64,000 bases of DNA from a bacterium (lineage in GTDB: Bacteria > Babelota > Babeliae > Babelales > UBA12409), in assembly GCA_018660415.1 (NCBI GenBank), contig JABJKG010000013.1, positions 193,874-257,873 on the forward strand. The letters are read 5' to 3'. Below the pieces are notes generated by a model that made no database searches, was not told the DNA's origin, and worked only from the letters and a program-made list of their open reading frames with translations. Positions 24,670 through 47,536 of the stretch are shown in pieces. Positions within the stretch are counted from its first letter, which is position 1; each line of letters begins with the position of its first letter. The position numbers and the translations under genes are program-made.

Positions 24670-28601
<3,932 letters not shown>

Positions 28602-28780
28602 TAGAAAAACCTCCATTTCCCCAAATTTTATATTATTACAAATATACCATATGTGTGGTATTTCTCAACAGGGTAGGGTTTTATGGGAGAGGGTTAGCTA
28701 TAACTGCTATAGGAGGTTTAATTGGGATTGTGGATAAAGAGGTTCAGGAGTACCTATTGTAGGTACCCCTGATATACGTG

Positions 28781-31043: not shown

Positions 31044-32402
31044 TTACGCGAACTCACGAATCATACAACTATCACAGTTTGTAGGATTGATCTTTTCGTC
31101 AGCTATTACTTTTTCAAATTCTTCATCAATAAAGGTTTGTACCCCTTTAATAAGCCGGTCTACTTCTTCTTGTGTATTATAAAAATAGAAGCTAGCACGG
31201 ACACTGGATGCATAATCAAGTCGACGAGCGAGCATGTGAGCACAGTGCTTACTGGTTCTTACAGCGATATTGAATGTTTTATCCAAGTATTCAGCCAAGC
31301 GTGGTGCTGGGATACATTTAATATTGAAGGCAACAACATGTCCTTCTTTTCGTAAATGTTCTTTAGCGCCAAGTATTTGAACCATAGGCATTTTTTCAAG
31401 ACCGGTAATCAACCGATCACAAAGAGATGCAAGATATTCTTTTGTTGGTTGTGTAAAGATTTTTTCTTCAAGGTAATCAATCGCTGCGCCAAGACCGATG
31501 GCTTGTACGATTGGTGGCGTTCCTGCTTCTAGACCTTCTGGCGCGGGATGATAAATACTGTCTTCAAACGGTACCTTGATAATATCGGCCATACCGCCAC
31601 CCCATTGGTAGGCTGGTACAGAATCAATTACATCTTTTTTGATATACAATGCTCCGATCCCGGTTGGAGCTAACATTTTATGTCCTGAGAACACGAGAAA
31701 ATCCATGTCATACGCTCGAACATCCATTTTTTCATACGGTACTGATTGTGCGCCATCGATCAGTACTTTTGCACCGACTGCATGTGCAGCTTCAATAACG
31801 CGTTTAATTGGATTTTGTGTTCCAATTGCGTTCGAGGTATGGATACATCCTACGAACTTAGTTTTTGGAGTTATAACTTTTTCCATTTGTTCAAGATCTA
31901 AAAATCCATCGGGAGTTACTTCAATGAACTTGAGGACTAATCCTTTACGCTCGGCAAGTCGGATCCATGGTAATAAACCTGAGTTATGTTCCATCTCGGT
32001 TATAACAATTTCATCACCCTCTTGTAAGAACTTTTCACCCCATGTTGAAGCTAAAAAATTAATGCTTTCACTTGTACCTTTAGTGAACACGATTTCATTT
32101 TCATTAGCGTTGATAAAATGAGCTACCTTCGCGCGCGCTTCTTCATAGAGGGCTGTGGATTTTAAACTGAGTCCATAATCGCCACGGTGGATATTAGCAC
32201 TCGCATATCGATAGGTATTACATACAGTATCGATAACCTGGTTAGGCTTTTGTGATGTTGCACCACTATCAAAGAAAACAAATTGGTTATGATCTTTTTT
32301 GTGATGCAGAATGGGGAAGTCTTCGCGGTAGCAGTTGTATTCGGTATAGATATTACTTGATAGGAGTCCTAATGCAAGTGTAGCTATGGCTATTTTTTTC
32401 AT
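31044..32402 (-). CDS. Class V aminotransferase / cysteine desulfurase (SufS/CsdA-like) with N-terminal signal peptide
   Basis: REDFPIL...FFDSGATSQKP, PLP lysine FSGHKMLAPTGIGALY, and catalytic-Cys loop RTSKHCAHML. The N-terminal MKKIAIATLALGLLSSNIY precedes the conserved core. Confidence 0.85.
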   Translation of the reverse strand: MKKIAIATLALGLLSSNIYTEYNCYREDFPILHHKKDHNQFVFFDSGATSQKPNQVIDTVCNTYRYASANIHRGDYGLSLKSTALYEEARAKVAHFINANENEIVFTKGTSESINFLASTWGEKFLQEGDEIVITEMEHNSGLLPWIRLAERKGLVLKFIEVTPDGFLDLEQMEKVITPKTKFVGCIHTSNAIGTQNPIKRVIEAAHAVGAKVLIDGAQSVPYEKMDVRAYDMDFLVFSGHKMLAPTGIGALYIKKDVIDSVPAYQWGGGMADIIKVPFEDSIYHPAPEGLEAGTPPIVQAIGLGAAIDYLEEKIFTQPTKEYLASLCDRLITGLEKMPMVQILGAKEHLRKEGHVVAFNIKCIPAPRLAEYLDKTFNIAVRTSKHCAHMLARRLDYASSVRASFYFYNTQEEVDRLIKGVQTFIDEEFEKVIADEKINPTNCDSCMIREFA

Positions 32403-32543
32403 AATTTTGAACCTTCTTTAAAACATTAACAATACTTCTTGATATTTCAGTTGTTTTATTATTAATTTTCTTTCAAGAAAATTGCAAGCATGAATAGTAT
32501 CTCCGGAGTTTCTTTGTGAATGGTAGAGTTTTTCTGATAGTGG

Positions 32544-33197
32544 TCAGGAGTTAATTAATGCATTAAGTTTTTTCAGGGTAGCGAGTGGATTCGGGGTATC
32601 AAAGATGCCAGAACCGATAGCAAACGCGTCAACGCCAATATTGGCCAATTCTTTAATATTATTTTCATCAATGCCGCCATCCATAGCAATCTCGAAGGTG
32701 AGATTGTTGTCTTTTCGGTATTGAATTAGGCTTCGAGCTTTTTCTATACATTCAGGAATAAAATCCTGTCCTGAAAATCCAGCTTGTACGGACATGATGA
32801 GCACTTGATCAAGGGTGTTAATAAAAGGGAAAATCGACTTGATTGGTGTGTCGGGATTGATAGCGATACTGGAAAGTAGTTGCTTATTTTTGATAGTTGT
32901 AATGACGGTAGCGGGATCTTGTGCGCTTTTAAGTTGGAAGGCGATTATATCATCGTTATGGATCTTGAGTTGTTGTATGAACGTATTGGGATCTTCAATC
33001 ATTAAGTGAATAAAAAGTTGTTTTGTAGCGACTGTAGCGATCTGGTTTACAAAGTCTGCGCCAAAGGTCAGGTTAGGGACTTGATGGTTATCCATGACAT
33101 CAAGATGAAACCCTGAACAATATGGTTCAAATTTTTTAAGTTCACTTTTGATTTCTAATATTTTTGCGGCGATTAAAGAGAGATAGATTTTCTTCAT
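32544..33197 (-). CDS. rpe: Ribulose-phosphate 3-epimerase
   Basis: HLDVMDNHQVPNLTFG, MSVQAGFSGQDF, and MDGGI. Confidence 0.9.
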   Translation of the reverse strand: MKKIYLSLIAAKILEIKSELKKFEPYCSGFHLDVMDNHQVPNLTFGADFVNQIATVATKQLFIHLMIEDPNTFIQQLKIHNDDIIAFQLKSAQDPATVITTIKNKQLLSSIAINPDTPIKSIFPFINTLDQVLIMSVQAGFSGQDFIPECIEKARSLIQYRKDNNLTFEIAMDGGIDENNIKELANIGVDAFAIGSGIFDTPNPLATLKKLNALINS

Positions 33198-33473
33198 TTT
33201 TGGAGTTCCTCAAATTCAAAAGTTAGTATGAGTCGCATAGTAAAAATTAAAAACCTGAATGTATTGACAGAGTATCTTTTTATATGGTAGAAAAGAGTGA
33301 TATAAATAAGCTAGCAAAAGAAAATTTTTCATGGAAAAGCAGCTGTGCATCGGATCATAACAGAGGAATTAATTTATTGATACTACTATAATGCTTCACG
33401 TTTTACAGAATGGGGTTTTGTAAGATAGAGAAATGTTGAGAGATATAATAAAAATAGTTGGGAAGGATTAATA

Positions 33474-34079
33474 ATGAAAAAAGTTTTACTTATAGCAGGA
33501 GTCTTGTTAGCACTTGCGTCACCACAATTAAACGCTATGGGTGGCGGCGGTGGAGCAGCGTCAAAGAAGAAAGCGCCAGCATCAGGCATAATGTCAAAGC
33601 TTATGAATGGTGGTTGGACTTTAGGGAAATACTCACTGTATGGTGGTGGAGCCGGTCTTGGTCTTTGGGGTGCTTATAAAGGGTATTCTGAGACTGCAAA
33701 AATAGAAGATTCAGGCAAACGTCTTGCAGCTCAGGGGTTGCTTGTTAGTACTGTAAGTAGTGTTGGATCTGGTTTAGGGGTGCTATATCTATTAAGAAGT
33801 AATAGTGCATTGTCTAAGGAAGTGGCTGAAGCGAATAAAGAGATTAAGTTGATTCGTGAGAAGATGCAAGAAGCGCCAAGTGAAGAGGCTCAACGACGTG
33901 CTCTAGTGTTAGAGCGTGGTGCTGAGGCTTCCATACTTGCTCACCATAAGATTGGAAGAATTCCTACCCTTCCTAAAGGTAAGAAAGTTCTTAACGAAAC
34001 TGATGCTCAGTTGTTAGAAAGAATTCATGGCGAGCTTGATCAAGGCAATGATGATGCAGCAAGCGAAGTGGGCAACTAA
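33474..34079 (+). CDS. Secreted Gly-rich hypothetical protein
   Basis: Signal peptide MKKVLLIAGVLLALASPQLNA, a GGGGG tract, and hydrophobic Gly-rich segments. The RBS is GGAAGGA. Confidence 0.5.
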   Translation: MKKVLLIAGVLLALASPQLNAMGGGGGAASKKKAPASGIMSKLMNGGWTLGKYSLYGGGAGLGLWGAYKGYSETAKIEDSGKRLAAQGLLVSTVSSVGSGLGVLYLLRSNSALSKEVAEANKEIKLIREKMQEAPSEEAQRRALVLERGAEASILAHHKIGRIPTLPKGKKVLNETDAQLLERIHGELDQGNDDAASEVGN

Positions 34080-34114
34080 GCTAAGCTTCTTATAAGCACA
34101 GACAATATAATGGG

Positions 34115-34148
34115 TGGTCCTTTGAAAAAAGGGGCCACTCTTTTTTTT
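34115..34148 (+). terminator. Intrinsic terminator after the 33474 gene
   Basis: Stem GTGGTCC / GGGCCAC (one G-U pair) with loop tttgaaaaaag, then tcTTTTTTTT. Confidence 0.6.
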
Positions 34149-34234
34149 GACAGGGACCTCTTGTAAGTGGCAGAATAACCCAGTATACTGTTGGTAGTAT
34201 TGCAAAATGGAAATATATTATATTGGGGGTTGTT

Positions 34235-35239
34235 ATGAAAAAAGTATTATTGTTATCATTATTTATAGGCTTGAGTGCCTTACAAGCAGCACCAGATGAG
34301 GAGTTTGAGCAGGTATTCGGGCCACAGGCTGTAAGGTAAACGAGCTTGGTTGGTGATACTCTTTATGGAAGAACTGATGAAGAGATAGAGTTTTGTCCTG
34401 TTACTAGTACTGGGGTAACTGCGGCAAGTTGTTTTAATATGCAGGGTCAAAAACCTTCCTCAATGAGTGTTTCTCCGCATATAAGTCATTACGTTCAAGG
34501 CCTTCGAGTGTTGCATGCGGGAACTAGGTCTGGTAGTGTAAAGTCATTTTCTTCGCAGACCGGACAAGATGCTTTGTTTGATACTCCGGTTTTTTCTGGT
34601 CCAGTTACTTCTGTAGCTACACAGGGGAAATCTGCGGATGATGGATGTATTTATGCAGCTTCAGAAGATACGGTCAAAGTCATTGACGTGAAAACTATGA
34701 AAGAAAACCCAAGTCTTGAGTTGGGTGTTGGCGAAAAAGTATTAGGAATGCATGCGAATGATTCTGGTTTTCTCGTGGTGCGAACTAGCAAACAAGTATT
34801 AATGTTTAGGCGTAATGAGTCTTCTCCTACGGCAGTACATACATTTGCAAGCCCAGTAGTTGATGCTGTTAATACGCCTCATGATGGGCAAACGCTTTTT
34901 GTTGCAACAGGGGATCATCATTTACATATGCGTAATTATGCTCAAACAAGAGAGTCAGATCCTATTGCAGGCTCATCCCTTACTGGTGATGATTTACTGT
35001 CGGTCAGTGATGTAATGTCTATTGCTGAAGATCATTTATTGGTAGCCGACAATGGAGAAGGTTCTTCTTTTGTACGTCAGTATGGGTTGATGGATGAAAG
35101 TGCAAAAATTAAAAAACTCGGGAAACGTGTAAGGTCTTTGTCGCATGCTACGGTAGGAGGCAAAAATGTTGCTGTCGTTGGTGGTGATAATGGACAGGTT
35201 CGCTTGTTACCGGTTCTTTTAGAAAGTGAAGAATCGTAA
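34235..35239 (+). pseudogene. Secreted 7-blade beta-propeller-like protein (family C), with one in-frame TAA at 34337-34339 between signal peptide and body
   Basis: ATG at 34235 gives MKKVLLLSLFIGLSALQAAPDEEFEQVFGPQAVR, then TAA, then the same frame stays open for 300 codons (track ORF 34346-35239). The total of 335 codons matches paralogs of 336 and 358 aa. Confidence 0.6.
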
Positions 35240-35267
35240 AGATTAAAGGGTAAAGGTTGCGAGCTTT

Positions 35268-36278
35268 ATGAAAATTTATTTATTTTTATTATCAGTAGTC
35301 AGTATGACTAGTTTAACAGGGATGTTTGATGGAGAGGGTCCAGTGGTTAAAACTTTTCATCCTCATGCAGGTAATTCGGTAGAGCAGGTAGCGTTAAGTA
35401 ATAGTGATTTGTATACAAGAAGCTCTAGAAGTGTAAAATATCATCCTCTAGTTGGAGCAGGAGATGTTTCTATAGCGAGGGTATTGGGAGCGATGTATCC
35501 CACTGCTATGAGTCTTTCTTCCGAGGCTCCGATACTGCATGTGGGAACTCAAGAGGGAGTTGTTCAGGAGTTTGCAAAAGGGATAGAAGATGCACCTATA
35601 AATACTAGGCGCTTATTTGATTCTCCTATTACTTCAATGGCAACACAGGGAGCTGAGCACTTAATGCGTCTTTATGCAGCTTCTGGGAAAAAGATTAAGG
35701 TTGTTGACCTGGCTAAGATGGAGGAAATGAGGTCATTAGAATTACAGGTGGAGGAACCAGTACGTGGTTTGTATGCAAATAACTCAAATGTTTTGGTTGT
35801 AAGAGGGAAAAACACTGTTTATGCCTTTGAGCGCGATAAAACTAAGCCTGAGGGAATTCATAGATTTGCTCAAGAGGTGGTAGCTGTGACATGCACTAAG
35901 TTTGATGGACAGACGCTTTTAGTAGCAACGAAAGATGGAACCTTAACTCAGCTTAACTATTCTAATAAGTCTGATGTACGAAATAAAATTGCCGGGCGTT
36001 TATTGGCAGGTGAAGCCAGTCAAGTTCGTGATAGGATAATGTCAATTTCTGATGATGGTCTTATTGTTGTAGAAGATGGTACCGATGATAGTTCCTCTGT
36101 GACCAGTTATGGTATTATGGATGAAACGAATCCTGGAGTGGGACAAAGCATTTCTCATCGTGCAAGATCATTGAGTTACGATGTTGTTAGGGGAGAAAGA
36201 GTTGGGGTTATAGGAGGCGATAGAGGACAGGTTTCCCTCGTGAAAATTATCGATGAAGATAGAGCAGCTGGTGGATAA
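35268..36278 (+). CDS. Secreted beta-propeller-like protein, family C
   Basis: Signal peptide, then seven blade-like repeats of about 45 aa (for example ILHVGTQEGVVQEF, LYAASGKKIKVVDL, LLVATKDGTLTQLN, VGVIGGDRGQVSLVKI). Confidence 0.6.
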   Translation: MKIYLFLLSVVSMTSLTGMFDGEGPVVKTFHPHAGNSVEQVALSNSDLYTRSSRSVKYHPLVGAGDVSIARVLGAMYPTAMSLSSEAPILHVGTQEGVVQEFAKGIEDAPINTRRLFDSPITSMATQGAEHLMRLYAASGKKIKVVDLAKMEEMRSLELQVEEPVRGLYANNSNVLVVRGKNTVYAFERDKTKPEGIHRFAQEVVAVTCTKFDGQTLLVATKDGTLTQLNYSNKSDVRNKIAGRLLAGEASQVRDRIMSISDDGLIVVEDGTDDSSSVTSYGIMDETNPGVGQSISHRARSLSYDVVRGERVGVIGGDRGQVSLVKIIDEDRAAGG

Positions 36279-36359
36279 ATTTGAGCTGAGTAATACTGGC
36301 TAATCGAAGTAGATATTAGTTTTGGAGATTGCTTGAAGGTACGACGGCTAAGGGGTTTT

Positions 36360-37436
36360 ATGAAAAAAAGTGTTATTTTATTTTTGTTAGTGAGTTTGGT
36401 TAGTATAAGAGTTTTTACTATACCTTCAATTAACAGACTGCGTCCTCATCAGGAGGTGCCGGTACTCCAAGCTGTGATTGTTGACGATTTGTTGCTTTCA
36501 AGATCAGGTTGCTCTATACGAGCTTTTTGTCTTGGTAAAGAAACGCCACACACGCAATATAGTACAAAAGATCCTACCCACATGAGTTTGTCACTAGGTG
36601 GCGCGTTACTTTGGGCTGGAACTAAACAAGGAAGTGTACAGTCCCTTTACAGGGGAATGAGAGCTCCTGTTCAGACAATTCCTGTATTTGATGTTGCTAT
36701 AAGTACAATGGCATTGCCAGAGGACAGTGAGTCTCCTTATATGTATGTAGCTGGAGGTTCTGTTGTGAAATGTGTAGATAGACGTATGGGGAAGAGCATT
36801 GAGAGTGAAGCTAGTGATGTTGGAGGTCATATAAAGGAGTTACACCTTGTAAATCCCAATGTTGTTTTGGCTACGTCACATAATCAAGTTTTTGTTTTGA
36901 ATCTAAAAAAAGGTGAAAAAGTAGCAGAGCGTACTTTTCCTTCTTTAGTGCGCTCGTTATCTTTGGCTTCCGATGATGGCCAACTGTTCTGTGCAGCAAC
37001 TAGTAAAGGAAGCTTATATCATGTTAATACCTTTCATCCTTGTGTAAGGCCTGTAGTTATAGCTGGAGAGAAACTACAAGAAGTGATGCGACGTGTTTCA
37101 TATGATTACGCTTTTCAGCTTTCTGATGGTGAGTTACTTACAGCTAAGTCTCATGGGCACCCTCTTACATTGCGTAGGTTTGGGGTTGTGGATGGTCATT
37201 CGTCTACAAAGAAAGCTTTTTTAGCTCATGATGTTACCTCTCTTTCAGAAGGCACTTGTGGTGGAAGTCCGGTAGTGTTAGCCGGTGGACCTGAAGGCGA
37301 AGTTAGCCTGGTTTCTTTGGATGGCTTTAAAAAAAATGAATCTGATCGCTCAGAGCTATCTAAAAAAGAAAAACAAAGACTATTAAGAGCGGGACGCCGC
37401 CTTCCTTTTAAGTCCTTGGAAACAATTCCAGAGTGA
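36360..37436 (+). CDS. Secreted beta-propeller-like protein, family C
   Basis: The ATG at 36360 follows AAGGGG. Signal peptide MKKSVILFLLVSLVSIRVFT. The blade motifs are as in the paralogs (LLWAGTKQGSVQSL, VVLAGGPEGEVSLVSL), plus a basic C-terminal tail. Confidence 0.6.
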   Translation: MKKSVILFLLVSLVSIRVFTIPSINRLRPHQEVPVLQAVIVDDLLLSRSGCSIRAFCLGKETPHTQYSTKDPTHMSLSLGGALLWAGTKQGSVQSLYRGMRAPVQTIPVFDVAISTMALPEDSESPYMYVAGGSVVKCVDRRMGKSIESEASDVGGHIKELHLVNPNVVLATSHNQVFVLNLKKGEKVAERTFPSLVRSLSLASDDGQLFCAATSKGSLYHVNTFHPCVRPVVIAGEKLQEVMRRVSYDYAFQLSDGELLTAKSHGHPLTLRRFGVVDGHSSTKKAFLAHDVTSLSEGTCGGSPVVLAGGPEGEVSLVSLDGFKKNESDRSELSKKEKQRLLRAGRRLPFKSLETIPE

Positions 37437-37563
37437 GGCGAAAAAGACAACGCAGGGTGGTAAAATCCATCAAAGGCGACTTCTCTTATTGCCCCATTTA
37501 AATAGTTTGTTAAACTATAAAGAAATCAATTCTTCAATCAATAAGAACAATTAAAGGAAATTT

Positions 37564-38016
37564 ATGTCTGTTGACTCAATTAAAGTTGGTATGATTATTA
37601 TTATGGAGCCGGATTTAGAAAAGGCTATAGAGTTTTTCAAGAATCTTGGTTTTCCTTTGAAATTTCACTTGGAAGCGAAATGGGCCGAGTTTGGTATCGG
37701 TGATGTTAAGATGGGTTTATGTCCAACTTCAAGTGAAATAATTGAGCATCATACTGGTGTCATCTTGGAAGTTGATGATGTTAACAAGACTTTTGAAGAG
37801 TTTAAGGCAAAGGGTGTTGAGTTTGTTAAAGAACCATTCGTAGCCGTGCATGGTATTATGTGTTCATTTAAAGATCCAGGTGGAAACATCTTTGATCTTT
37901 ATCAACCAACTCCAGAAAAAGTACAAGAAATGGTTGAAAAGATGAAACAAGAAGAAGCTAAAGCGGCAGCAGCCGGCGAAACTCCTTCAGATGACAAGCC
38001 TGATTCTGAGGCATAA
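37564..38016 (+). CDS. VOC (glyoxalase / bleomycin-resistance) family protein with acidic C-terminal tail
   Basis: AIEFFKNLGF...HHTGVILEVDDVNKTFEEFKAKGVEF...FKDPGGNIFDLYQP is a typical VOC pattern. Confidence 0.7.
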   Translation: MSVDSIKVGMIIIMEPDLEKAIEFFKNLGFPLKFHLEAKWAEFGIGDVKMGLCPTSSEIIEHHTGVILEVDDVNKTFEEFKAKGVEFVKEPFVAVHGIMCSFKDPGGNIFDLYQPTPEKVQEMVEKMKQEEAKAAAAGETPSDDKPDSEA

Positions 38017-38069
38017 AACTAACTAAGATAATGTGACAGCTTTAGTCGCATAATGGTATCAAGTTGATT

Positions 38070-38098
38070 GGTGGGGTTGTAAAAGCCCCACCTTTTTT
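38070..38098 (+). terminator. Intrinsic terminator
   Basis: 7-bp GC stem GGTGGGG / CCCCACC with a 9-nt loop, followed by TTTTTT. Confidence 0.7.
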
Positions 38099-38171
38099 GT
38101 GTGCAATTTGCTTTAAAAAGATATAAATGATCCACTCATAAAATCTTAGTCAGTTGCTATAAGAAATTAAT

Positions 38172-38199
38172 TTGCAGATTTGTGGAAACGGGTTATAAT
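38172..38199 (+). promoter_or_regulatory. Candidate groESL promoter
   Basis: TTGCAG (38172-38177), 16-nt spacer, TATAAT (38194-38199). No CIRCE inverted repeat was seen nearby. Confidence 0.35.
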
Positions 38200-38246
38200 A
38201 AAATGAAATATGTTGATATGTTAAATGAAATTATTAGGGGGATTTT

Positions 38247-40191
<1,945 letters not shown>

Positions 40192-40254: not shown

Positions 40255-40989
40255 TTAATCAGTTTTTTGACGTTTTTGTTTTTGATACTCTTTTCTATGT
40301 ACTTTGACTTCAGGGCGTGCTCCATACTCTTTTCTATGTACTTTGACTTCAGGGCGTTCTTCATACTCTTTTTTTCGTACTTTGACTTCAGGGCGTGCTC
40401 CATACTCTTTTTGATACTCTTTTTGATATGCTTTTTGATACGCTTTGACTTCAGGGCGTGCTCGATACTCTTTTGTATGCGCTTGTGTTTCAGGGCGTGC
40501 GTAATACTCTTTTTGATACGCTTTGGTATGTGCTAGTACTTCAGGGCGTGCGTAATACTCTTTTTTTTGTGCTTTTCTATGTGCTATTTTCGCTAAATAG
40601 ATTTCTGGAGTATTTATGCGTTCTTCTAGCTTATGTATTTTTTTAGCAAGAACCATTTTTTTTGATAAAAGTCGTTTAAACTCTTTGGCTATTTTTTTAT
40701 CATTTTGCTGAGCTCTTAAGAGATCAATCTGGGGTTGAATTCTGTTAATTTCAGCCCAATGTTTTGAAGTTTTTGCTTGATCTTGAGCAAATATGGATGC
40801 TCCCTGTGGTCGTGCTGACTCTTCTATAGCCTTCAATAAAACCCCTAAACCTTGGCTTTGTTCTATATTATCAGCAGCAACCAGCCCGCTAGGCGGGGGA
40901 GGTGGAAAATAAAATTCGTTATCATTACTATATATATTTAACGAAACCAGGATACTGGTCAGAAAAGTACACTGTATTATTTTGTTCAT
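40255..40989 (-). CDS. Secreted coiled-coil protein with C-terminal 13-aa tandem repeats (family D)
   Basis: Signal peptide MNKIIQCTFLTSILVSLNIYS, a PPPPPS tract, AEINRIQPQIDLLRAQQ shared with the paralog, then KEYxARPEVKVxx-type repeats. Confidence 0.6.
   Translation of the reverse strand: MNKIIQCTFLTSILVSLNIYSNDNEFYFPPPPPSGLVAADNIEQSQGLGVLLKAIEESARPQGASIFAQDQAKTSKHWAEINRIQPQIDLLRAQQNDKKIAKEFKRLLSKKMVLAKKIHKLEERINTPEIYLAKIAHRKAQKKEYYARPEVLAHTKAYQKEYYARPETQAHTKEYRARPEVKAYQKAYQKEYQKEYGARPEVKVRKKEYEERPEVKVHRKEYGARPEVKVHRKEYQKQKRQKTD
40284..40560 (-). repeat. Coding tandem repeat, 39-bp basic unit (about 7 units, some of them expanded)
   Basis: The units atactcttttctatgtactttgacttcagggcgtgctcc (40284-40322), 40323-40361 and 40362-40400 are nearly identical. 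Degenerate units of 39-63 bp follow to about 40560. Each contains cttcagggcg (encoding ARPE[VT]). Confidence 0.85.
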
Positions 40990-41046
40990 AAGAAACTCCA
41001 TTTTTTAAATAATCAATTAATAAAAAATTTGTAATGTAAGTATTAA

Positions 41047-41568
41047 TCAGTTTTTTTGACGTTTTCTTGCTCGATACTCTTGTTGAACCTCACTTCTACG
41101 TTCTTTGACTTCAGGTTGGGCACGATAAGAGGCGCGTTGTGCTACTTTTGCTAAATAGGCTGTTGGATTTTCTAATCGTTTTTCTAGTTCACGTATTTTT
41201 TTAGCAACAGCTGTTTTTTTTGATAAAAGTTGTTTTAACTCTTTGAGTGTTTTTTTATCATCAATAGAGCCTTTTGTTACCTTTTTTCGCTGGGTTCTTA
41301 AGAGATCAATCTGGGGTTGAATTCGATTGATTTCAGCTTGGTTTTTAACAATTTCTGCCTGAATATTAGAAACTTGTTGTGATGGTAACTGTGGCTTTGG
41401 TGATTCTTCTACAATTTCTACTACTTCTATTTCTTGGGTCGGAAGCAACGGTCTAATTAATTCTAATGTGTTGCCTGAGGTGGGTGGAGGAGTAATTTTA
41501 CCGCTACTGTATATATTTAACGATACAAGACTGCTGGCCATAAGAGTAAAATGTATTATTTTTTTCAT
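41047..41568 (-). CDS. Secreted coiled-coil protein, family D (short-repeat paralog)
   Basis: Signal peptide MKKIIHFTLMASSLVSLNIYSS and AEINRIQPQIDLLRTQR. It ends with SYRAQPEVKERRSEVQQEYRARKRQKN. The 3' flank taagtattaatcagttttttt is shared with the 40255 gene. Confidence 0.6.
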   Translation of the reverse strand: MKKIIHFTLMASSLVSLNIYSSGKITPPPTSGNTLELIRPLLPTQEIEVVEIVEESPKPQLPSQQVSNIQAEIVKNQAEINRIQPQIDLLRTQRKKVTKGSIDDKKTLKELKQLLSKKTAVAKKIRELEKRLENPTAYLAKVAQRASYRAQPEVKERRSEVQQEYRARKRQKN

Positions 41569-41782
41569 AAGGAACCCCGTTTTTACAAACATATAAATTA
41601 CAAATTAGTATTATAATCGTATCGTTTATAATAATTAAGAATCAACGGTTTTGTTTGATTGTATTGTGTGTTAGTGTGGGTGCTCAATCTAATGTGATGT
41701 TTTGATTCAACTATTGCTTTTGGGGGGCGAACCTGTTATTATTTTTAATAGCATTTTTGTCGAAGTAGAATTTGGGGGGGTT

Positions 41783-42484
41783 ATGAAAAAGTTATTATTA
41801 ATCAGTTTATTTGTATTACCTAGTTTGTATGGGATGGGTGATGAGGTTGTTCCACAACGCGTGGATACATCGGAGATAGTTCCACCATACTTTATGATTA
41901 TGGAGCAGATGAGTAGGAAGTTAGAGCTTGTTAGTAGGGACATTTTAAATAAGTCAGTTTATGGAACGGTTAGAATGTTAGAAGAGATGCCGATAGGTGA
42001 TGCGATCGAGGCGGTTGATCGGCAGGAGCAAAATTTAGAAAAGTTGTCTCAATTGGCCTTAAGATTAAATAGGTATACTACAGATCAAATCGAATGCGAT
42101 TATTTTAGTACTTTATTTTCTCCTGTAAAACCGGTACACCATTTACAAGAAGTATCTGGGGTAGATCAAGATGACTCTTGGACAGCAATATTCCGTGAAG
42201 AGCGGATGGAACCAAAATTTATTTTACAAGGCGTTTGTGAAAAATTAAGAACTTTGGAGAAGCGGGTGACTCCTTTATTTGCATTGTCCAGCATAAATCT
42301 CAATGCGAGCAGTAGGGCAATCCCTAACCTTGGCAGACCAACCACCTGGGCCGAAGGAATTACGCATCGCCTTCGGGGGGATATTAAGCCACAACTGTCA
42401 GAGTTGTACCATCGCTATCAACGGGTATTAAGAACCACTCTGGAAAGTATTGAGGGTCAACTACGCAAGGTTTGTATAGACTAA
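41783..42484 (+). CDS. Secreted hypothetical protein
   Basis: The ATG at 41783 gives MKKLLLISLFVLPSLYG. The track start at 41702 is an unlikely extension. Confidence 0.5.
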   Translation: MKKLLLISLFVLPSLYGMGDEVVPQRVDTSEIVPPYFMIMEQMSRKLELVSRDILNKSVYGTVRMLEEMPIGDAIEAVDRQEQNLEKLSQLALRLNRYTTDQIECDYFSTLFSPVKPVHHLQEVSGVDQDDSWTAIFREERMEPKFILQGVCEKLRTLEKRVTPLFALSSINLNASSRAIPNLGRPTTWAEGITHRLRGDIKPQLSELYHRYQRVLRTTLESIEGQLRKVCID

Positions 42485-42493
42485 AAATTATTT

Positions 42494-42889
42494 CTAGTTG
42501 CCGGTCTCTTTTTCACCGCTTTTGAGATATGCTTTGAGTGCAGCTTCTTGTTCAGCAGTTAATTTTCCCATTTCTACTAAGTGAAGCGTGTTTTGGGCAC
42601 GAGCAGCGGCAATTCTTTTTAGGGAGCCTTCTTCTACCCCAGGACCCTTTGCTTGTTCTTTAAGGCGTTGTTCAATTAAAGCTATTTCTTCTGGAGTGAG
42701 TCCCGCAGTGCCTAGTTCTACACCATCATCATCACCAAAGTTTACTACAGCTGCAAGTTCCATCTCCATAGGACTTTTTCTGCCATTCTTAGTTTCATCT
42801 TGATGACCCATATCGCCACCAAAAATAGATAGTGAGGTTAATGTAAAAAGAGAGATTAAGGTTAAATTTTTCATCAGTGTGCCTTTCAT
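42494..42889 (-). CDS. Small secreted hypothetical protein
   Basis: Signal peptide (MKGTL)MKNLTLISLFTLTSLSIFGG, followed by an acidic, helical remainder. Confidence 0.5.
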   Translation of the reverse strand: MKGTLMKNLTLISLFTLTSLSIFGGDMGHQDETKNGRKSPMEMELAAVVNFGDDDGVELGTAGLTPEEIALIEQRLKEQAKGPGVEEGSLKRIAAARAQNTLHLVEMGKLTAEQEAALKAYLKSGEKETGN

Positions 42890-42961
42890 TTCGATGTTTA
42901 TTATCTTAAGTTTAGCAATTTAATTATTTAATGCATCAAAAATAATTAAATTTTAATTCTC

Positions 42962-44398
42962 TTAGAATGCTGCGCCAACTTTTGCCCACCAACCCCAATT
43001 AGATAAAGTACAGTTTTTATGAGCATATTCGAACAGGCCACCAACGTACGCAAATGCATTAACACGCTTGCCTTTTCCTGCAATGCCAACAGTTCCTTGG
43101 AAGATCTGAGAAATGGTAGCACGTGCTGCACCTGACTTAAGATCTAAATCATTTGCAGTAATAGGTGTAAAGGTTGCATCGTTATCAGCTTGGAACCTAA
43201 TTGTACTAGCACTTGCAGTATTACCAACCTGTACATTATCAGGAGAGAGAGTCGTACTTCCTGTTCCAGCAATCCCGTACTCTTCCTTCCATTTATGCTT
43301 GAGTTGTAACCGCTCATCGCCATGTGTCCAACAACCATAAGATAATTCTGCATCTAAACAACGATACGTTATTCGAATACCCGTTGCTGCATTAACAAGG
43401 TTATAGGCATGGACTTTACATTTGGGAGTTAAAGCATTAATACCGGGAAGGTTAACCAACCCGTTGGTTTTATTAACTTGAACGTAACGACTCCATGGTT
43501 TATTACAAAGATCGACGCTTCTAAATTGATCTCGTTCAAATAAGAACACACTTACAGCATCTAAAAATACAGTTACCAATGCTTCACTGTTGCACGGGCT
43601 GACTGGCATTTGGATGTTAACCTGGTTTCCCCAACCGTAGTGACCATTAAATCCACGATATGCTTCAAAAATGTTAGTAGGGCAGTTACTTCCTTCTCCA
43701 GGGATGGATATGAAAGTAGAAAAATCAAACTGCCAATCTGGATAGTCTATAAATCTGGTTCCAAAAGTGAAGCGGGTTTCCCCAAGTCCACAACTTTCTG
43801 TAGTGTCATTAAACTTACCGAATTCCCAACTTTCTTGTGTAAGAGCTTGTTGTATGGTTCCTGGGTTGGTGGTGTAGGTTTCTGCTATTGATTGAGCAAA
43901 ATGAATGTTATTTTTGACTTCGTTATAATTGGTCGTAAACCCAATCCACATATTTTTAAAGAAGCACCACTTTAAAACATTTTTTAAGCCGAGCTTATAA
44001 TCTATGATCGCGCCCTGTTGTTTTTGTTTTGGCTTCATTGTGAATGAACCATCAAAATCACTCGGTAATCCTAGCCATTCTGCCCGAATATCACGGTTGG
44101 TTGCATTAGAATTGATAGCATCATCACCCTTAACGGTCATATCAGTTTTACCATCAATGAAAAAATAGGTGACATTTCTTCGGTGTTTGATCGTGTGTTG
44201 TCCGTAGGCAATAATTTGTAGAGCATTGCTCGTACAGTCTTGTCCAAATGCATACGTGTGCCAGCCGGCCTGTTGAGCTTCGATATTGAAAAATCCTGGT
44301 CGAGTAAACATGAAGGATTGAGAATATCTATTTTCAAAAGCCGAAAGAGACGGTACGCAGACAAGGAAAAACAGCAACTTATAAATGTAACGTTTCAT
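42962..44398 (-). CDS. Putative outer-membrane beta-barrel porin, Cys-rich
   Basis: Signal peptide MKRYIYKLLFFLVCVPSLSA, an aromatic-rich alternating pattern, C-terminal WWAKVGAAF with a terminal Phe, and about ten Cys in the mature part. Confidence 0.55.
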   Translation of the reverse strand: MKRYIYKLLFFLVCVPSLSAFENRYSQSFMFTRPGFFNIEAQQAGWHTYAFGQDCTSNALQIIAYGQHTIKHRRNVTYFFIDGKTDMTVKGDDAINSNATNRDIRAEWLGLPSDFDGSFTMKPKQKQQGAIIDYKLGLKNVLKWCFFKNMWIGFTTNYNEVKNNIHFAQSIAETYTTNPGTIQQALTQESWEFGKFNDTTESCGLGETRFTFGTRFIDYPDWQFDFSTFISIPGEGSNCPTNIFEAYRGFNGHYGWGNQVNIQMPVSPCNSEALVTVFLDAVSVFLFERDQFRSVDLCNKPWSRYVQVNKTNGLVNLPGINALTPKCKVHAYNLVNAATGIRITYRCLDAELSYGCWTHGDERLQLKHKWKEEYGIAGTGSTTLSPDNVQVGNTASASTIRFQADNDATFTPITANDLDLKSGAARATISQIFQGTVGIAGKGKRVNAFAYVGGLFEYAHKNCTLSNWGWWAKVGAAF

Positions 44399-44505
44399 TA
44401 CGGACGTCCTTTTACATATAATTTATTTACGCAGTATAGCATATACAAGTGAAATGCAATACGTGTTGAGATTATGACAGGTTTTAACGAAAGACAAGTT
44501 TTCTT

Positions 44506-44946
44506 ATGACGAAATTTATATTTTCTGTACTTCTACTCTTCTCTTTGGATATGCACTCACTTGAATATAAGGACTATAACATTAATTTCCAAGATGTGGG
44601 TAAAAAAGTTTTAGTTTGGGCCAAGAGTGACCAGCCATTTTTAGAAAAATGCAGCCAAGTAATACATATGTATGGTGATAACGCGGGATTAGTCTTTAAA
44701 TTTCTTGGTGAAATTTTATTAAAATATGAAAGCCCTGATGAAAATATAAAAGGCATTTTAGGACAATGTGGAAGCTTCATGTGTTCGCATGGTGAATACT
44801 TAAAAAATAAAGCCCCAGCATGGCAGCTCATGGTCCACGCATATATAATGACGAGACTAACGCAAGAAACCTTGCGCTATGTTCGAAAGATTAGTCATAT
44901 AGTGCTTAAGCGTCCTGATCAGTCAGCATGGCATACGGATTGGTAG
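44506..44946 (+). CDS. Small secreted hypothetical protein
   Basis: Signal peptide MTKFIFSVLLLFSLDMHS. Its 3' end overlaps the convergent 44906 gene by 41 nt. Confidence 0.45.
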   Translation: MTKFIFSVLLLFSLDMHSLEYKDYNINFQDVGKKVLVWAKSDQPFLEKCSQVIHMYGDNAGLVFKFLGEILLKYESPDENIKGILGQCGSFMCSHGEYLKNKAPAWQLMVHAYIMTRLTQETLRYVRKISHIVLKRPDQSAWHTDW

Positions 44947-45643
44947 TATGAACATGAGGAACCGGTGTTCCCCGTCGTGTTCTGGAAGATCGGGGGCCCC
45001 GATAACCACCACAGCCATGGTTTTCTAGTTCTTGTTTACGTTTTTCTCCTGGTGATGGTGGTCCTGTAGGTTTTTCACTTCCTTCCAGCGGAGGCATACT
45101 TTGTTGTTCATATTCTTTTTCTTTTCTTATTGCACGTTGAGCTCTTTTTAAGAGGTGTTGTTGGTTTCGAACGAAACTACGGAGTAAATCTGTTGGTGAA
45201 GGAAGATATTTTCCTGTTTTTATTCCATTATATAAAAGTGGGTATTGGTTTCCTAAGCTTTTTTCAAAGCCCCATTCATAGGCATACATACAAAATCCAT
45301 CAGTAGGATTTTTAAGGCCGACTGAAGAGTTTGAATGGAGATCTGCTTCTGCTTTACGAAACAATCTATTGAGACGTAATGTTTGTGCATCTTGCACTGT
45401 TACTCCCCATTCTTCATTGATCATTTGACCACTTAAAACTTCTGCTGAGGCTTTATTAGCTATAGCCCATAGCGGCGCCCATTCTTGGGCTGTCGGAAGA
45501 CTAATCGGAGACGGCCCTTTTTCTGTTATTGCTGCCAATTTTGAATGTAATGCTTGCCAGTTAGCTAATCCTGTATATCCAGGGTTGGGAAGTATGAGTG
45601 AAGATTGAATGAGTAACGATCCAAGCAGGTATAATTTTTTCAT
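44906..45643 (-). CDS. Secreted protein, paralog family E, with basic/Pro-rich C-terminal tail
   Basis: LANWQALHSKLAAI...LPTAQEWAPLWAI...GFCMYAYEWGFEKSLG aligns with LKDWNAKHTKLTTI...FPTAKEWTSYWPI...GFCRYTYELESEKGYG of the next ORF. Confidence 0.55.
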   Translation of the reverse strand: MKKLYLLGSLLIQSSLILPNPGYTGLANWQALHSKLAAITEKGPSPISLPTAQEWAPLWAIANKASAEVLSGQMINEEWGVTVQDAQTLRLNRLFRKAEADLHSNSSVGLKNPTDGFCMYAYEWGFEKSLGNQYPLLYNGIKTGKYLPSPTDLLRSFVRNQQHLLKRAQRAIRKEKEYEQQSMPPLEGSEKPTGPPSPGEKRKQELENHGCGGYRGPRSSRTRRGTPVPHVHTTNPYAMLTDQDA

Positions 45644-45665
45644 TGGGGAGATATTTCCTTAACTT

Positions 45666-46241
45666 TTAATTGATATCAATAACGTGCTGGTCAAGAACGC
45701 ATGTAGGAGACTTTGGTTGACAGTTGAGATAAGTCATTAAGATTTCTTCTGGTAATGGAAGGGGAGTGCATACTTGACTGTTTTTATATACTCTAAGAAC
45801 TGTACTTCCATATCCTTTTTCACTTTCAAGTTCATAGGTATAACGGCAAAAACCTAGCCATTTTATAGTGGGAGGATGAGGTTTATTAGAGGGGGTTTCT
45901 TCTTTAATATAATGATAAACAGTGTTGCTTGGGCTTGTAAACTCTCGTTTTGCTAGCATATATAAATTATTAATTCGTAGTTTGCGACCTCTGTCTGTCC
46001 GACCGTCTTGTGGGTCCTGCTCTTCAAGATGCATGTTCTTGCTATCATCACTGACAGCGTCACAGAGAAATATGGGCCAATAGCTTGTCCACTCTTTTGC
46101 TGTAGGGAAGTTTTCTAGTTTTGTTTTTCCTAAGATTGTTGTAAGTTTTGTATGTTTTGCATTCCAGTCCTTCAAGCTCATTGGGCTGATGACCAGAGTA
46201 TGTAAGAGTAAAAAACTCGAAACTATTAATATTTTTTTCAT
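45666..46241 (-). CDS. Secreted protein, paralog family E
   Basis: The start at MKKILIVSSFLLLHTLVISP (46239-46241) is preferred over the track start at 46316. Confidence 0.55.
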   Translation of the reverse strand: MKKILIVSSFLLLHTLVISPMSLKDWNAKHTKLTTILGKTKLENFPTAKEWTSYWPIFLCDAVSDDSKNMHLEEQDPQDGRTDRGRKLRINNLYMLAKREFTSPSNTVYHYIKEETPSNKPHPPTIKWLGFCRYTYELESEKGYGSTVLRVYKNSQVCTPLPLPEEILMTYLNCQPKSPTCVLDQHVIDIN

Positions 46242-46342
46242 AAAATCCATCCATTTATTAGAGATAACCCATCCATTATTAATACTAATTGTAAGGTTTT
46301 GTTGGCTGATTGTCAAAAGACGATATGGTTGATAAATCAGTA

Positions 46343-47536
46343 TTAACGGAGACTTTCAGGGTATAAAAAACTAAAACAGAGGAGTTTGTTCATGAGAGAG
46401 CGCGCAATGGTGGTAGTATAGAATGTCTGCATCCAAAGAAGTCGTACACTTTTTTGTAAAAGCGAGGTGGGTGAATGGTATTTAGGGGGTGGTGGCGGTG
46501 GTGCTATACAGTCTTTAAATGGGTGTTCTTGTTCATATATCGCCTCGGCCAGTACGTTATGCAGGGAGGGGTCACAGACTTGCATAAGAGAGAAGTTGTT
46601 ACGATCATTGTGTTGCCATCGTGCGCCAGCCTTAAGTAAGAGATATATTAGTGTGGTGCGATTATCTAGATTGAATGGTGTATTTCCAGAGGGGCGACGT
46701 GTGGCTACAAACAATGGAGTATATCCAGCCATCCTTTCTACGGTGTTGGGTTTGGCATCGCAGGTATTGAGTAGCCAATCTACAGTCGTAGTTCGTTCGT
46801 ATAATGTTGCCTGGAATAACGGGGTCCACCCAAAATCTCCTGGTGTATCAGCGGTAAGACCGTGAGCTTCAGCATACCCTGTCATTTCATTTGGTGTTGC
46901 GAAAGCAGCCATACTAATAAGCTTATTTGCATAATCCAAAGGAGAGTGCATATATTCATTTAAGTATGGATGCAATGCAGGTACCGCATAGCCATGAGTA
47001 GTGATTCCATATTGGTTAACATGGAGGATGTCTGCCCCACCTTCCAAAAGGGCTTGAATAGTTAGAAGTTGAGAGGTGTTGCTAATAGGGTGATGGTATG
47101 GTTCTTCTGCATTCATACTACGTTTTACGGGAGACGGCGGTTGGTGGTGTACAGCGAACATCAGTGCCGTAGATCCCTCTTTATTTACCGCATCGGGGCG
47201 AGCGCCTTCGGACAGAAGCCATTTAACGACATCACTTCTATGTAGGCGTGCAGCTTCCATTAATGGACTTATTCCACTTTCATCTATTTGATTTGCATTA
47301 ATTCCATGCATTCTAAATGTGTTTTGAATTTCTCCTAAGGGTGCACATCTAATTAAACCAACGGCTTGGTGAGTAAAGTCATAGGTGGCTCGCTTAATTT
47401 TTTTTGCATGTAGAACCCGTTTTTGATGCAAAGAAGAACCAACCAGAGGGCCTGATTGATTGGGAGCTCCACGAAGTGTGGAACAAAGATGCATGAAAAT
47501 GAGTATTATAAGTCTATAATTTTTTATTTTCATCAT
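46343..47536 (-). CDS. Ankyrin-repeat protein with signal peptide
   Basis: ANK repeats: GISPLMEAARLHRSDVVKWLLSEGARPDAVNKEGSTALMFAV, GWTPLFQATLYERTTTVDWLL, and GYTPLFVATRR...LLLKAGA. A PPPPPP tract lies near the C-terminus. Confidence 0.85.
   Translation of the reverse strand: MMKIKNYRLIILIFMHLCSTLRGAPNQSGPLVGSSLHQKRVLHAKKIKRATYDFTHQAVGLIRCAPLGEIQNTFRMHGINANQIDESGISPLMEAARLHRSDVVKWLLSEGARPDAVNKEGSTALMFAVHHQPPSPVKRSMNAEEPYHHPISNTSQLLTIQALLEGGADILHVNQYGITTHGYAVPALHPYLNEYMHSPLDYANKLISMAAFATPNEMTGYAEAHGLTADTPGDFGWTPLFQATLYERTTTVDWLLNTCDAKPNTVERMAGYTPLFVATRRPSGNTPFNLDNRTTLIYLLLKAGARWQHNDRNNFSLMQVCDPSLHNVLAEAIYEQEHPFKDCIAPPPPPPKYHSPTSLLQKSVRLLWMQTFYTTTIARSLMNKLLCFSFLYPESLR

Follow-up and report, generated by a model that had tools for sequence, protein, structure and literature searches.

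A probable recent nonsense mutation in one of three exported WD40-like propeller genes of an uncultured Dependentiae bacterium

What becomes of an exported protein when an in-frame stop codon parts its signal peptide from the rest of the chain? The question is raised by a reading frame at 34235-35239 of the stretch of DNA analysed here, 64,000 nucleotides in all and hereafter called the window. The ATG at 34235 opens the translation MKKVLLLSLFIGLSALQAAPDEEFEQVFGPQAVR and heads a remnant ORF of 34 codons (34235-34336; all features of this locus lie on the forward strand), which encodes a putative Sec-type signal peptide, MKKVLLLSLFIGLSALQA (34235-34288), followed by 16 mature residues (APDEEFEQVFGPQAVR). 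A G-run resembling a Shine-Dalgarno (SD) sequence stands ahead of it at 34225-34229. Codon 35 is a premature ochre codon, TAA, at 34337-34339, and beyond it the same frame stays open for 299 codons, to a TAA at 35237-35239, for a total of 335 codons with both stops included. The first-pass annotation had read the start codon, the stop and the open frame to 35239 in this way, and re-reading and translating the window reproduced all three.

The stretch downstream of the stop is clearly coding, as its 299 codons are free of stops and none of 20000 shuffles of them stayed open; the other two frames of the same region hold 17 and 29 stops. The first in-frame start beyond the stop is the TTG at 34346, which opens a 297-codon ORF (34346-35239) that constitutes the body of the broken propeller gene, lacks a signal peptide and gives sub-threshold hits to WD40-propeller models in Pfam. 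Tryptic peptides within the 297-aa product include TDEEIEFCPVTSTGVTAASCFNMQGQKPSSMSVSPHISHYVQGLR and VLHAGTR. Near the start of the gene there is also a 26-nt direct repeat with 77% identity, one copy in the upstream terminator region (34106-34131, TATAATGGGTGGTCCTTTGAAAAAAG) and the other in the start region of the broken gene (34219-34244, TATATTGGGGGTTGTTATGAAAAAAG); this repeat is probably due to chance.

The source is a metagenome-assembled genome, where single-base errors occur, and the stop could in principle be a sequencing, assembly or consensus artefact of that one genome. Against this, TAA stands at 34337-34339 in all ten assemblies that could be read there, three from ENA and seven from JGI, with ten sample records and no mismatch over 0.9-6.9 kb. 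The contigs were assembled separately, by assemblers that differ as judged by contig names (NODE_, k141_, Ga...). In addition, the 297-aa product has two NCBI protein records, MBT5015767.1 and MBT4856110.1, entitled "hypothetical protein HOM50_05145 [bacterium]". The recurrence of TAA in ten separate assemblies means that the stop is not an assembly artefact, and we give an error of any kind next to no chance.

Across public contigs, the 297-aa product is called on at least 41 records (at least 24, plus 17 in which the first residue is L instead of M), and the 34-aa upstream piece is called as a gene of its own on 10 contigs. A search of about 15 billion proteins with the fused sequence matched no intact full-length version. 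TAA is the consensus allele wherever the organism has been assembled; these are consensus assemblies, in which a minority sense allele could remain. No SNP separates the ten assemblies, and because all contigs are identical, they are replicates of one clonal population rather than independent evolutionary samples. More broadly, the comparison of 31346-38239 with the ten contigs gave no mismatch over up to 6.9 kb, so that either the population is extremely clonal or one site has been sampled repeatedly. The source samples include ERZ23491584/SAMN05224495 and JGI 3300025614, and one record name, "HAWL17", hints that they may come from the Saanich Inlet time series, for which 62 metatranscriptomes and 68 metaproteomes exist (PRIDE PXD004433; PMC5663217).

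Directly downstream of the broken gene lie two intact paralogs. Paralog 2 (35268-36278, 336 aa) begins 28 nt past it and encodes a signal peptide and a seven-bladed WD40-like propeller; paralog 3 (36360-37436, 358 aa) has a signal peptide and a charged C-terminal tail, and a 52%-identical ortholog, P0003, is found in another metagenome. The first-pass annotation had matched the fused reading to both paralogs, and the match extends from end to end in our alignments, at 37% identity to paralog 2 and 27% to paralog 3. We read the signal peptides heuristically. The N-terminus of the broken gene runs from MKK through VLLLSLFIGL to SALQA, with AP after the putative cleavage point, and has no lipobox Cys; its maximum Kyte-Doolittle 9-mer is 2.83 (residues 4-12), compared with 2.78-3.67 in the paralogs. 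The succession of basic, hydrophobic and small residues typical of Sec signal peptides opens all three paralogs and P0003, and by the same heuristic the TTG product contains no such segment. The structural part of the first-pass annotation is right: the stop cuts a predicted signal peptide of Sec type off from the remainder of a propeller paralog.

Two further protein records touch the paralogs. One of 55 aa (P0009) matches 35268-35400 and is a variant of the paralog 2 N-terminus, identical through VEQVAL and then switched in frame (VIVICIQEALEV); it is a frameshifted or erroneous copy, with its change at almost the same position as the stop of paralog 1. The other (P0074, 228 aa, on a 1997-bp ENA contig) is 100% identical to roughly half of paralog 3 and carries a precomputed Pfam match to PF01765 (ribosome recycling factor); its contig is probably chimeric or misassembled.

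Sequence models place these proteins only loosely. Pfam returned nothing beyond sub-threshold matches to WD40-type propellers, the best being PF24817 at 25.6 bits against a cut-off of 109.9; PF00400 had no match, and NCBIfam gave nothing useful. An AlphaFold2 model of paralog 2, built from an alignment of four sequences, has a pLDDT of 77.9 and a pTM of 0.79, with about 27 strands arranged in seven blades. A Foldseek search of the PDB with this model returned only WD40 propellers (WDR5, Tup1, Cdc20), at TM 0.66-0.71 and 12-16% identity. Given that the Pfam WD40 models stay below threshold, we describe the proteins as WD40-like in fold, not as demonstrable WD40 members by sequence.

The likeness to eukaryote-type WD40 propellers, such as WDR5 and the C-terminal domain of Tup1, lies in the fold: the predicted structure of paralog 2 superposes on WDR5 at TM 0.67-0.71 over about 320 columns (Foldseek E about 3e-13), and seven blades are common to both. 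In the model the last blade consists of the three C-terminal strands and an extra strand, 27-30, lies near the N-terminus, a strand count from which we infer that this N-terminal strand may close the ring in velcro fashion. The differences are that sequence identity is 12-13%, that no Pfam WD40 model reaches threshold (about 25 bits versus at least 110), that the present proteins have predicted N-terminal Sec signal peptides, and that the family has only four detectable members. Gln40 of paralog 2, which corresponds to the stop, starts the first strand of blade 1 (40-44), and the TTG at 34346 corresponds to Leu43. The stop thus falls in the part homologous to the start of blade 1, in agreement with the earlier placement of it within the first-blade region.

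The family is a near-orphan, with four detectable members among 15 billion proteins. When 1.84 billion cluster representatives were searched exhaustively with a profile, nothing but P0003 and the three paralogs scored below 1e-30; the remaining matches were generic WD40 proteins at 1e-11 or weaker. No family member was found in the GTDB species representatives, where the source species itself is seemingly absent, and a scan of metagenome contigs revealed no family locus besides the contig carrying P0003. Searches with the fused sequence, of GTDB, of cluster representatives and of metagenome contigs gave no ortholog of paralog 1.

The contig carrying P0003 (ERZ1049444 NODE_42243; L004), 1.6 kb long at 2x coverage, holds this ortholog of paralog 3 together with the last 20 or so codons of an upstream family member (...GVVGGDKKRLEILSTILEE*), and ends before any ortholog of paralog 1. 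As the tail of a family member lies directly upstream of P0003, the tandem arrangement must predate the split of the two organisms. Within that tail (1-170 of the contig), GVVGGD is preceded, at a distance of four codons, by an in-frame TAA or an apparent frame shift. Either a second copy has decayed, in the relative, or low coverage has led to an error where the contig ends. P0003 is followed by a gene other than the glyoxalase homolog found after paralog 3 in the window, and synteny differs there.

The family alignment also reveals what the stop replaced. Its column is Gln in all intact members, reading VEQV (CAG) in paralog 2, VLQA (CAA) in paralog 3 and VLQT (CAA) in P0003. With Gln conserved at this column and CAA one step from TAA, the stop is accounted for by a single C-to-T transition, an ochre mutation of Gln35. 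TAA ends 31 of the window's 50 long ORFs, TAG ends 10 and TGA 9, and the broken gene's own end is TAA. An alternative genetic code was considered and rejected, as the code of the window is standard and TAA its commonest stop.

Apart from this codon, the broken gene appears undamaged. We found no second lesion in it, and its promoter-like site, SD-like G-run, ATG and whole downstream ORF are all intact. One hundred different single substitutions could make a further stop in the 299 codons and none is present, which limits neutral divergence since the mutation to less than about 0.09 substitutions per site (95%), with a median of about 0.02; this is an upper bound that counts substitutions only. 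Of 52 columns in which the other three members agree fully, the broken copy keeps 35; the intact paralog 2, with a count of 35 of 55, preserves family-conserved positions no better. The mutation is young compared with the split between the paralogs, or else the remainder of the gene is still under selection, and the data fit both. Intact expression signals and an intact downstream ORF are also the expected appearance of continued use.

The neighbourhood suggests how the loss of one copy could be borne. Upstream, the intrinsic terminator of a lipoprotein-like gene (33474-34079) lies at 34112-34140 (a 12-bp stem with 6 GC pairs, then T8) and marks the 5' boundary of the transcription unit. It is followed at 34147-34176 by a promoter-like site (TTGACA, 18 nt, CAGAAT, with TG; 10 of 12 matches), which is a consensus match only, such sites not being above shuffle expectation in this region. 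Downstream of the three paralogs comes a glyoxalase/VOC-family gene (37564-38016; PF00903, E 4.5e-12), the last before a second intrinsic terminator at 38070-38092 (a 9-bp stem with 6 GC pairs, then T6). The gaps between the four genes are 28, 81 and 127 nt. Because the two terminators bracket the four genes and the gaps are short, the genes appear to form a single operon. No terminator was found between the paralogs and the glyoxalase/VOC-family gene, which probably belongs to the same operon. Beyond the second terminator, the mechanically called GroEL ORF has its start at TTG 38518, inside the end of groES (38247-38528); NCBIfam alignments start at residues 11-13, so the true GroEL start is probably ATG 38554.

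Could the gene still yield a protein by restarting behind the stop? Bacterial ribosomes that have terminated are reported to keep scanning for about 40 nt and to begin again at the first start that an SD sequence precedes (PMC5972666), and 70S scanning and restart are attributed to Adhin and van Duin 1990 and Yamamoto et al. 2016 as cited there. The TTG at 34346 lies 6 nt past the TAA at 34337-34339, inside this radius, and an SD-like TAAGG at 34332-34336, formed by the Val33-Arg34 codons GTA AGG, lies 9 nt upstream of it. Motifs of the TAAGG/AAGGA type precede many genes of the window; the 3' end of the 16S rRNA is encoded outside the window, so the motif is SD-like by its letters only. We surveyed 15895 codon positions in genes of the window: at 13% of them an in-frame start comes up within three codons, and 0.42% have both such a start and an SD-like 5-mer at suitable spacing, the latter figure being post hoc, with a motif set of our own choosing. 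The same SD rule holds for 15 of the 47 real starts in the window.

The proposal in the first-pass annotation that translation restarts at this TTG is thus plausible, given the 6-nt gap and the TAAGG motif, but its further suggestion, that the stop switches localisation rather than abolishing the protein, lacks support. We doubt a switch for two reasons. The product would lose not only the signal peptide but also about 19 N-terminal mature residues, which form two beta-strands in the model of paralog 2. Moreover, the stop is one transition from a conserved Gln, the putative operon contains two intact paralogs and the arrangement is not preserved in any relative, so that a young pseudogene is the simpler account. 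Judged by the model, restart would cost the protein its signal peptide, the strand that closes the ring and the greater part of the innermost strand in blade 1. The predicted structure of the 297-aa product has a pLDDT of 71, with values mostly of 33-70 in the C-terminal third, against 78 for paralog 2, although this is not a controlled comparison.

Classic cases of reinitiation are built as the present gene is, with an early stop and, only a few nucleotides on, an in-frame start that has an SD-like sequence ahead of it. Early nonsense mutations in lacI and T4 rIIB gave the classic restarts, and their products retained activity. In the present gene, by comparison, restart is predicted from sequence, and the product would lose its export signal along with strands of the fold.

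These considerations bear on the idea that termination and reinitiation are in use here and matter, whether by making a signal-less cytoplasmic propeller or by keeping ribosomes on the message and so sparing the glyoxalase gene and paralogs 2 and 3 from polarity. The rarity of the context, the reported scanning of terminated ribosomes, the intact downstream ORF and the placement of four closely spaced genes between two strong terminators, consistent with one operon, all favour it. Against it, the low probability comes from a post hoc calculation, the product would be without two N-terminal propeller strands and the family is otherwise always signal-bearing. In addition, the SD-like motif derives from pre-existing Val-Arg codons, of which the Val is invariant in the family, and the TTG is a Leu codon position shared with paralog 2, so the restart context need not have been selected. 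On balance we consider a restart of this consequence unlikely, and of its possible benefits, relief of polarity is more defensible than the gain of a cytoplasmic role by a propeller that is short of two strands. More improbable still is the stronger version in which the nonsense allele became fixed owing to its good restart context, the operon staying translated, polarity being avoided and perhaps a signal-less WD40-like propeller accumulating in the cytoplasm.

Two other readings would rescue the gene in different ways, and both seem to us very improbable. The TAA might be decoded at useful frequency, by programmed readthrough or an ochre suppressor tRNA, to give the full-length exported protein; the frame does continue through the stop, and homology to the intact paralogs extends over the parts on either side of it. 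However, TAA is the main genuine stop in the window and also ends the broken gene, and the premature stop lies one transition from a conserved Gln codon, which is what a plain mutation would give. Nor did we find a stimulatory RNA structure downstream of the stop (MFE -26.5 versus a shuffle mean of -28.5, z = +0.56), any relevant repeat or slippery run around it, or a suppressor among the window's 4 tRNAs, all of which have ordinary anticodons. One of these, tRNA-Arg(TCT) at 24670-24746 (+), overlaps the last 40 or so nt of an ORF of 1303 aa with a PEP-utilising/PPDK_N domain (24705-28616, -).

Equally hard to credit is a functional small gene in the 34-codon remnant, encoding a membrane peptide derived from the signal peptide or an exported peptide of 16 residues. 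[quoted passage not shown] MntS and the 34-aa remnant are both short ORFs, largely signal peptide, left as the remnant of a gene. The difference is that MntS is conserved and functionally characterised, whereas the remnant is a very recent by-product with a putative function at most. Protein searches found no conservation of it beyond the present clonal population, and with so young a mutation, expression signals would be expected to persist for a while in any case.

We conclude that, of three redundant genes for exported WD40-like propellers, one has probably been inactivated by a recent CAA-to-TAA nonsense mutation. The frame is homologous to paralogs 2 and 3 and P0003 on both sides of the stop, the ancestral sense codon lies one step away, and the lesion is real. 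The locus heads a tandem array of three lineage-specific genes for predicted Sec-exported, seven-bladed WD40-like propellers in an uncultured marine bacterium of the Dependentiae (TM6/Babeliales). One C-to-T transition converted the conserved Gln35 codon from CAA to TAA, creating the only allele assembled in every sample that contains the organism. Translation from ATG 34235 would then end after 34 residues and the exported propeller would no longer be made, leaving a young pseudogene. The loss is presumably tolerated because two intact paralogs lie directly downstream in the same putative operon. Ribosomes ending at the TAA may restart at TTG 34346, with a product that would be cytoplasmic and is expected to be non-functional or unstable.

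Nonsense pseudogenes in the secreted-protein arrays of host-dependent bacteria look much the same, with a single in-frame stop, an otherwise intact ORF and intact paralogs adjoining, and the present lineage resembles those bacteria in being host-dependent and rich in ORFan secreted proteins (PMC6561590). The broken gene differs from such pseudogenes in that it bears no sign yet of further decay and its 3' part is publicly annotated as an ordinary gene.

The wider window is in keeping with such a host lineage. Its G+C content is about 38-40%, and the closest named relatives of its CysRS are from Candidatus Dependentiae/Babeliales, at 59-63% identity, with two metagenomic relatives, P0084 and P0085, at 76% and 68%; the best GroEL matches listed, 63-68% identical, came from many phyla and are uninformative for taxonomy and synteny. 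The window also encodes BamA, a PBP, F-type ATPase subunits, a deoxynucleoside kinase, an ankyrin-repeat protein and many ORFs without a Pfam match. Six consecutive ORFs of 180-477 aa without a Pfam match occupy 40255-47536 and adjoin the ankyrin-repeat protein (46343-47536), an ORFan and effector-like content that is typical for Dependentiae. Members of this group are protist parasites that depend on their hosts, and of the proteins of Chromulinavorax destructans 44% have signal peptides, the secreted set being enriched in ORFans and in repeat-domain proteins that are putative effectors (PMC6561590). By analogy, signal-bearing WD40-like propellers in a small tandem family would fit this picture of the Dependentiae secretome.

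The event is a new instance of a well-known kind, ordinary gene decay. For annotation, it means that the 297-aa "hypothetical protein" with a TTG start is the body of a signal-peptide gene cut by an ochre mutation, and that the entry should read as a disrupted gene. If efficient restart were true, the locus would be a natural case of nonsense mutation plus reinitiation; if re-targeting were also true, it would be a natural example, in an uncultured member of the Dependentiae, of a nonsense mutation that relocates a secreted protein rather than destroying it. As it stands, the locus puts on record a very small family, restricted to its lineage, of exported WD40-like propellers that are candidate host-interaction proteins, and it probably catches gene loss within their array at a very early stage.
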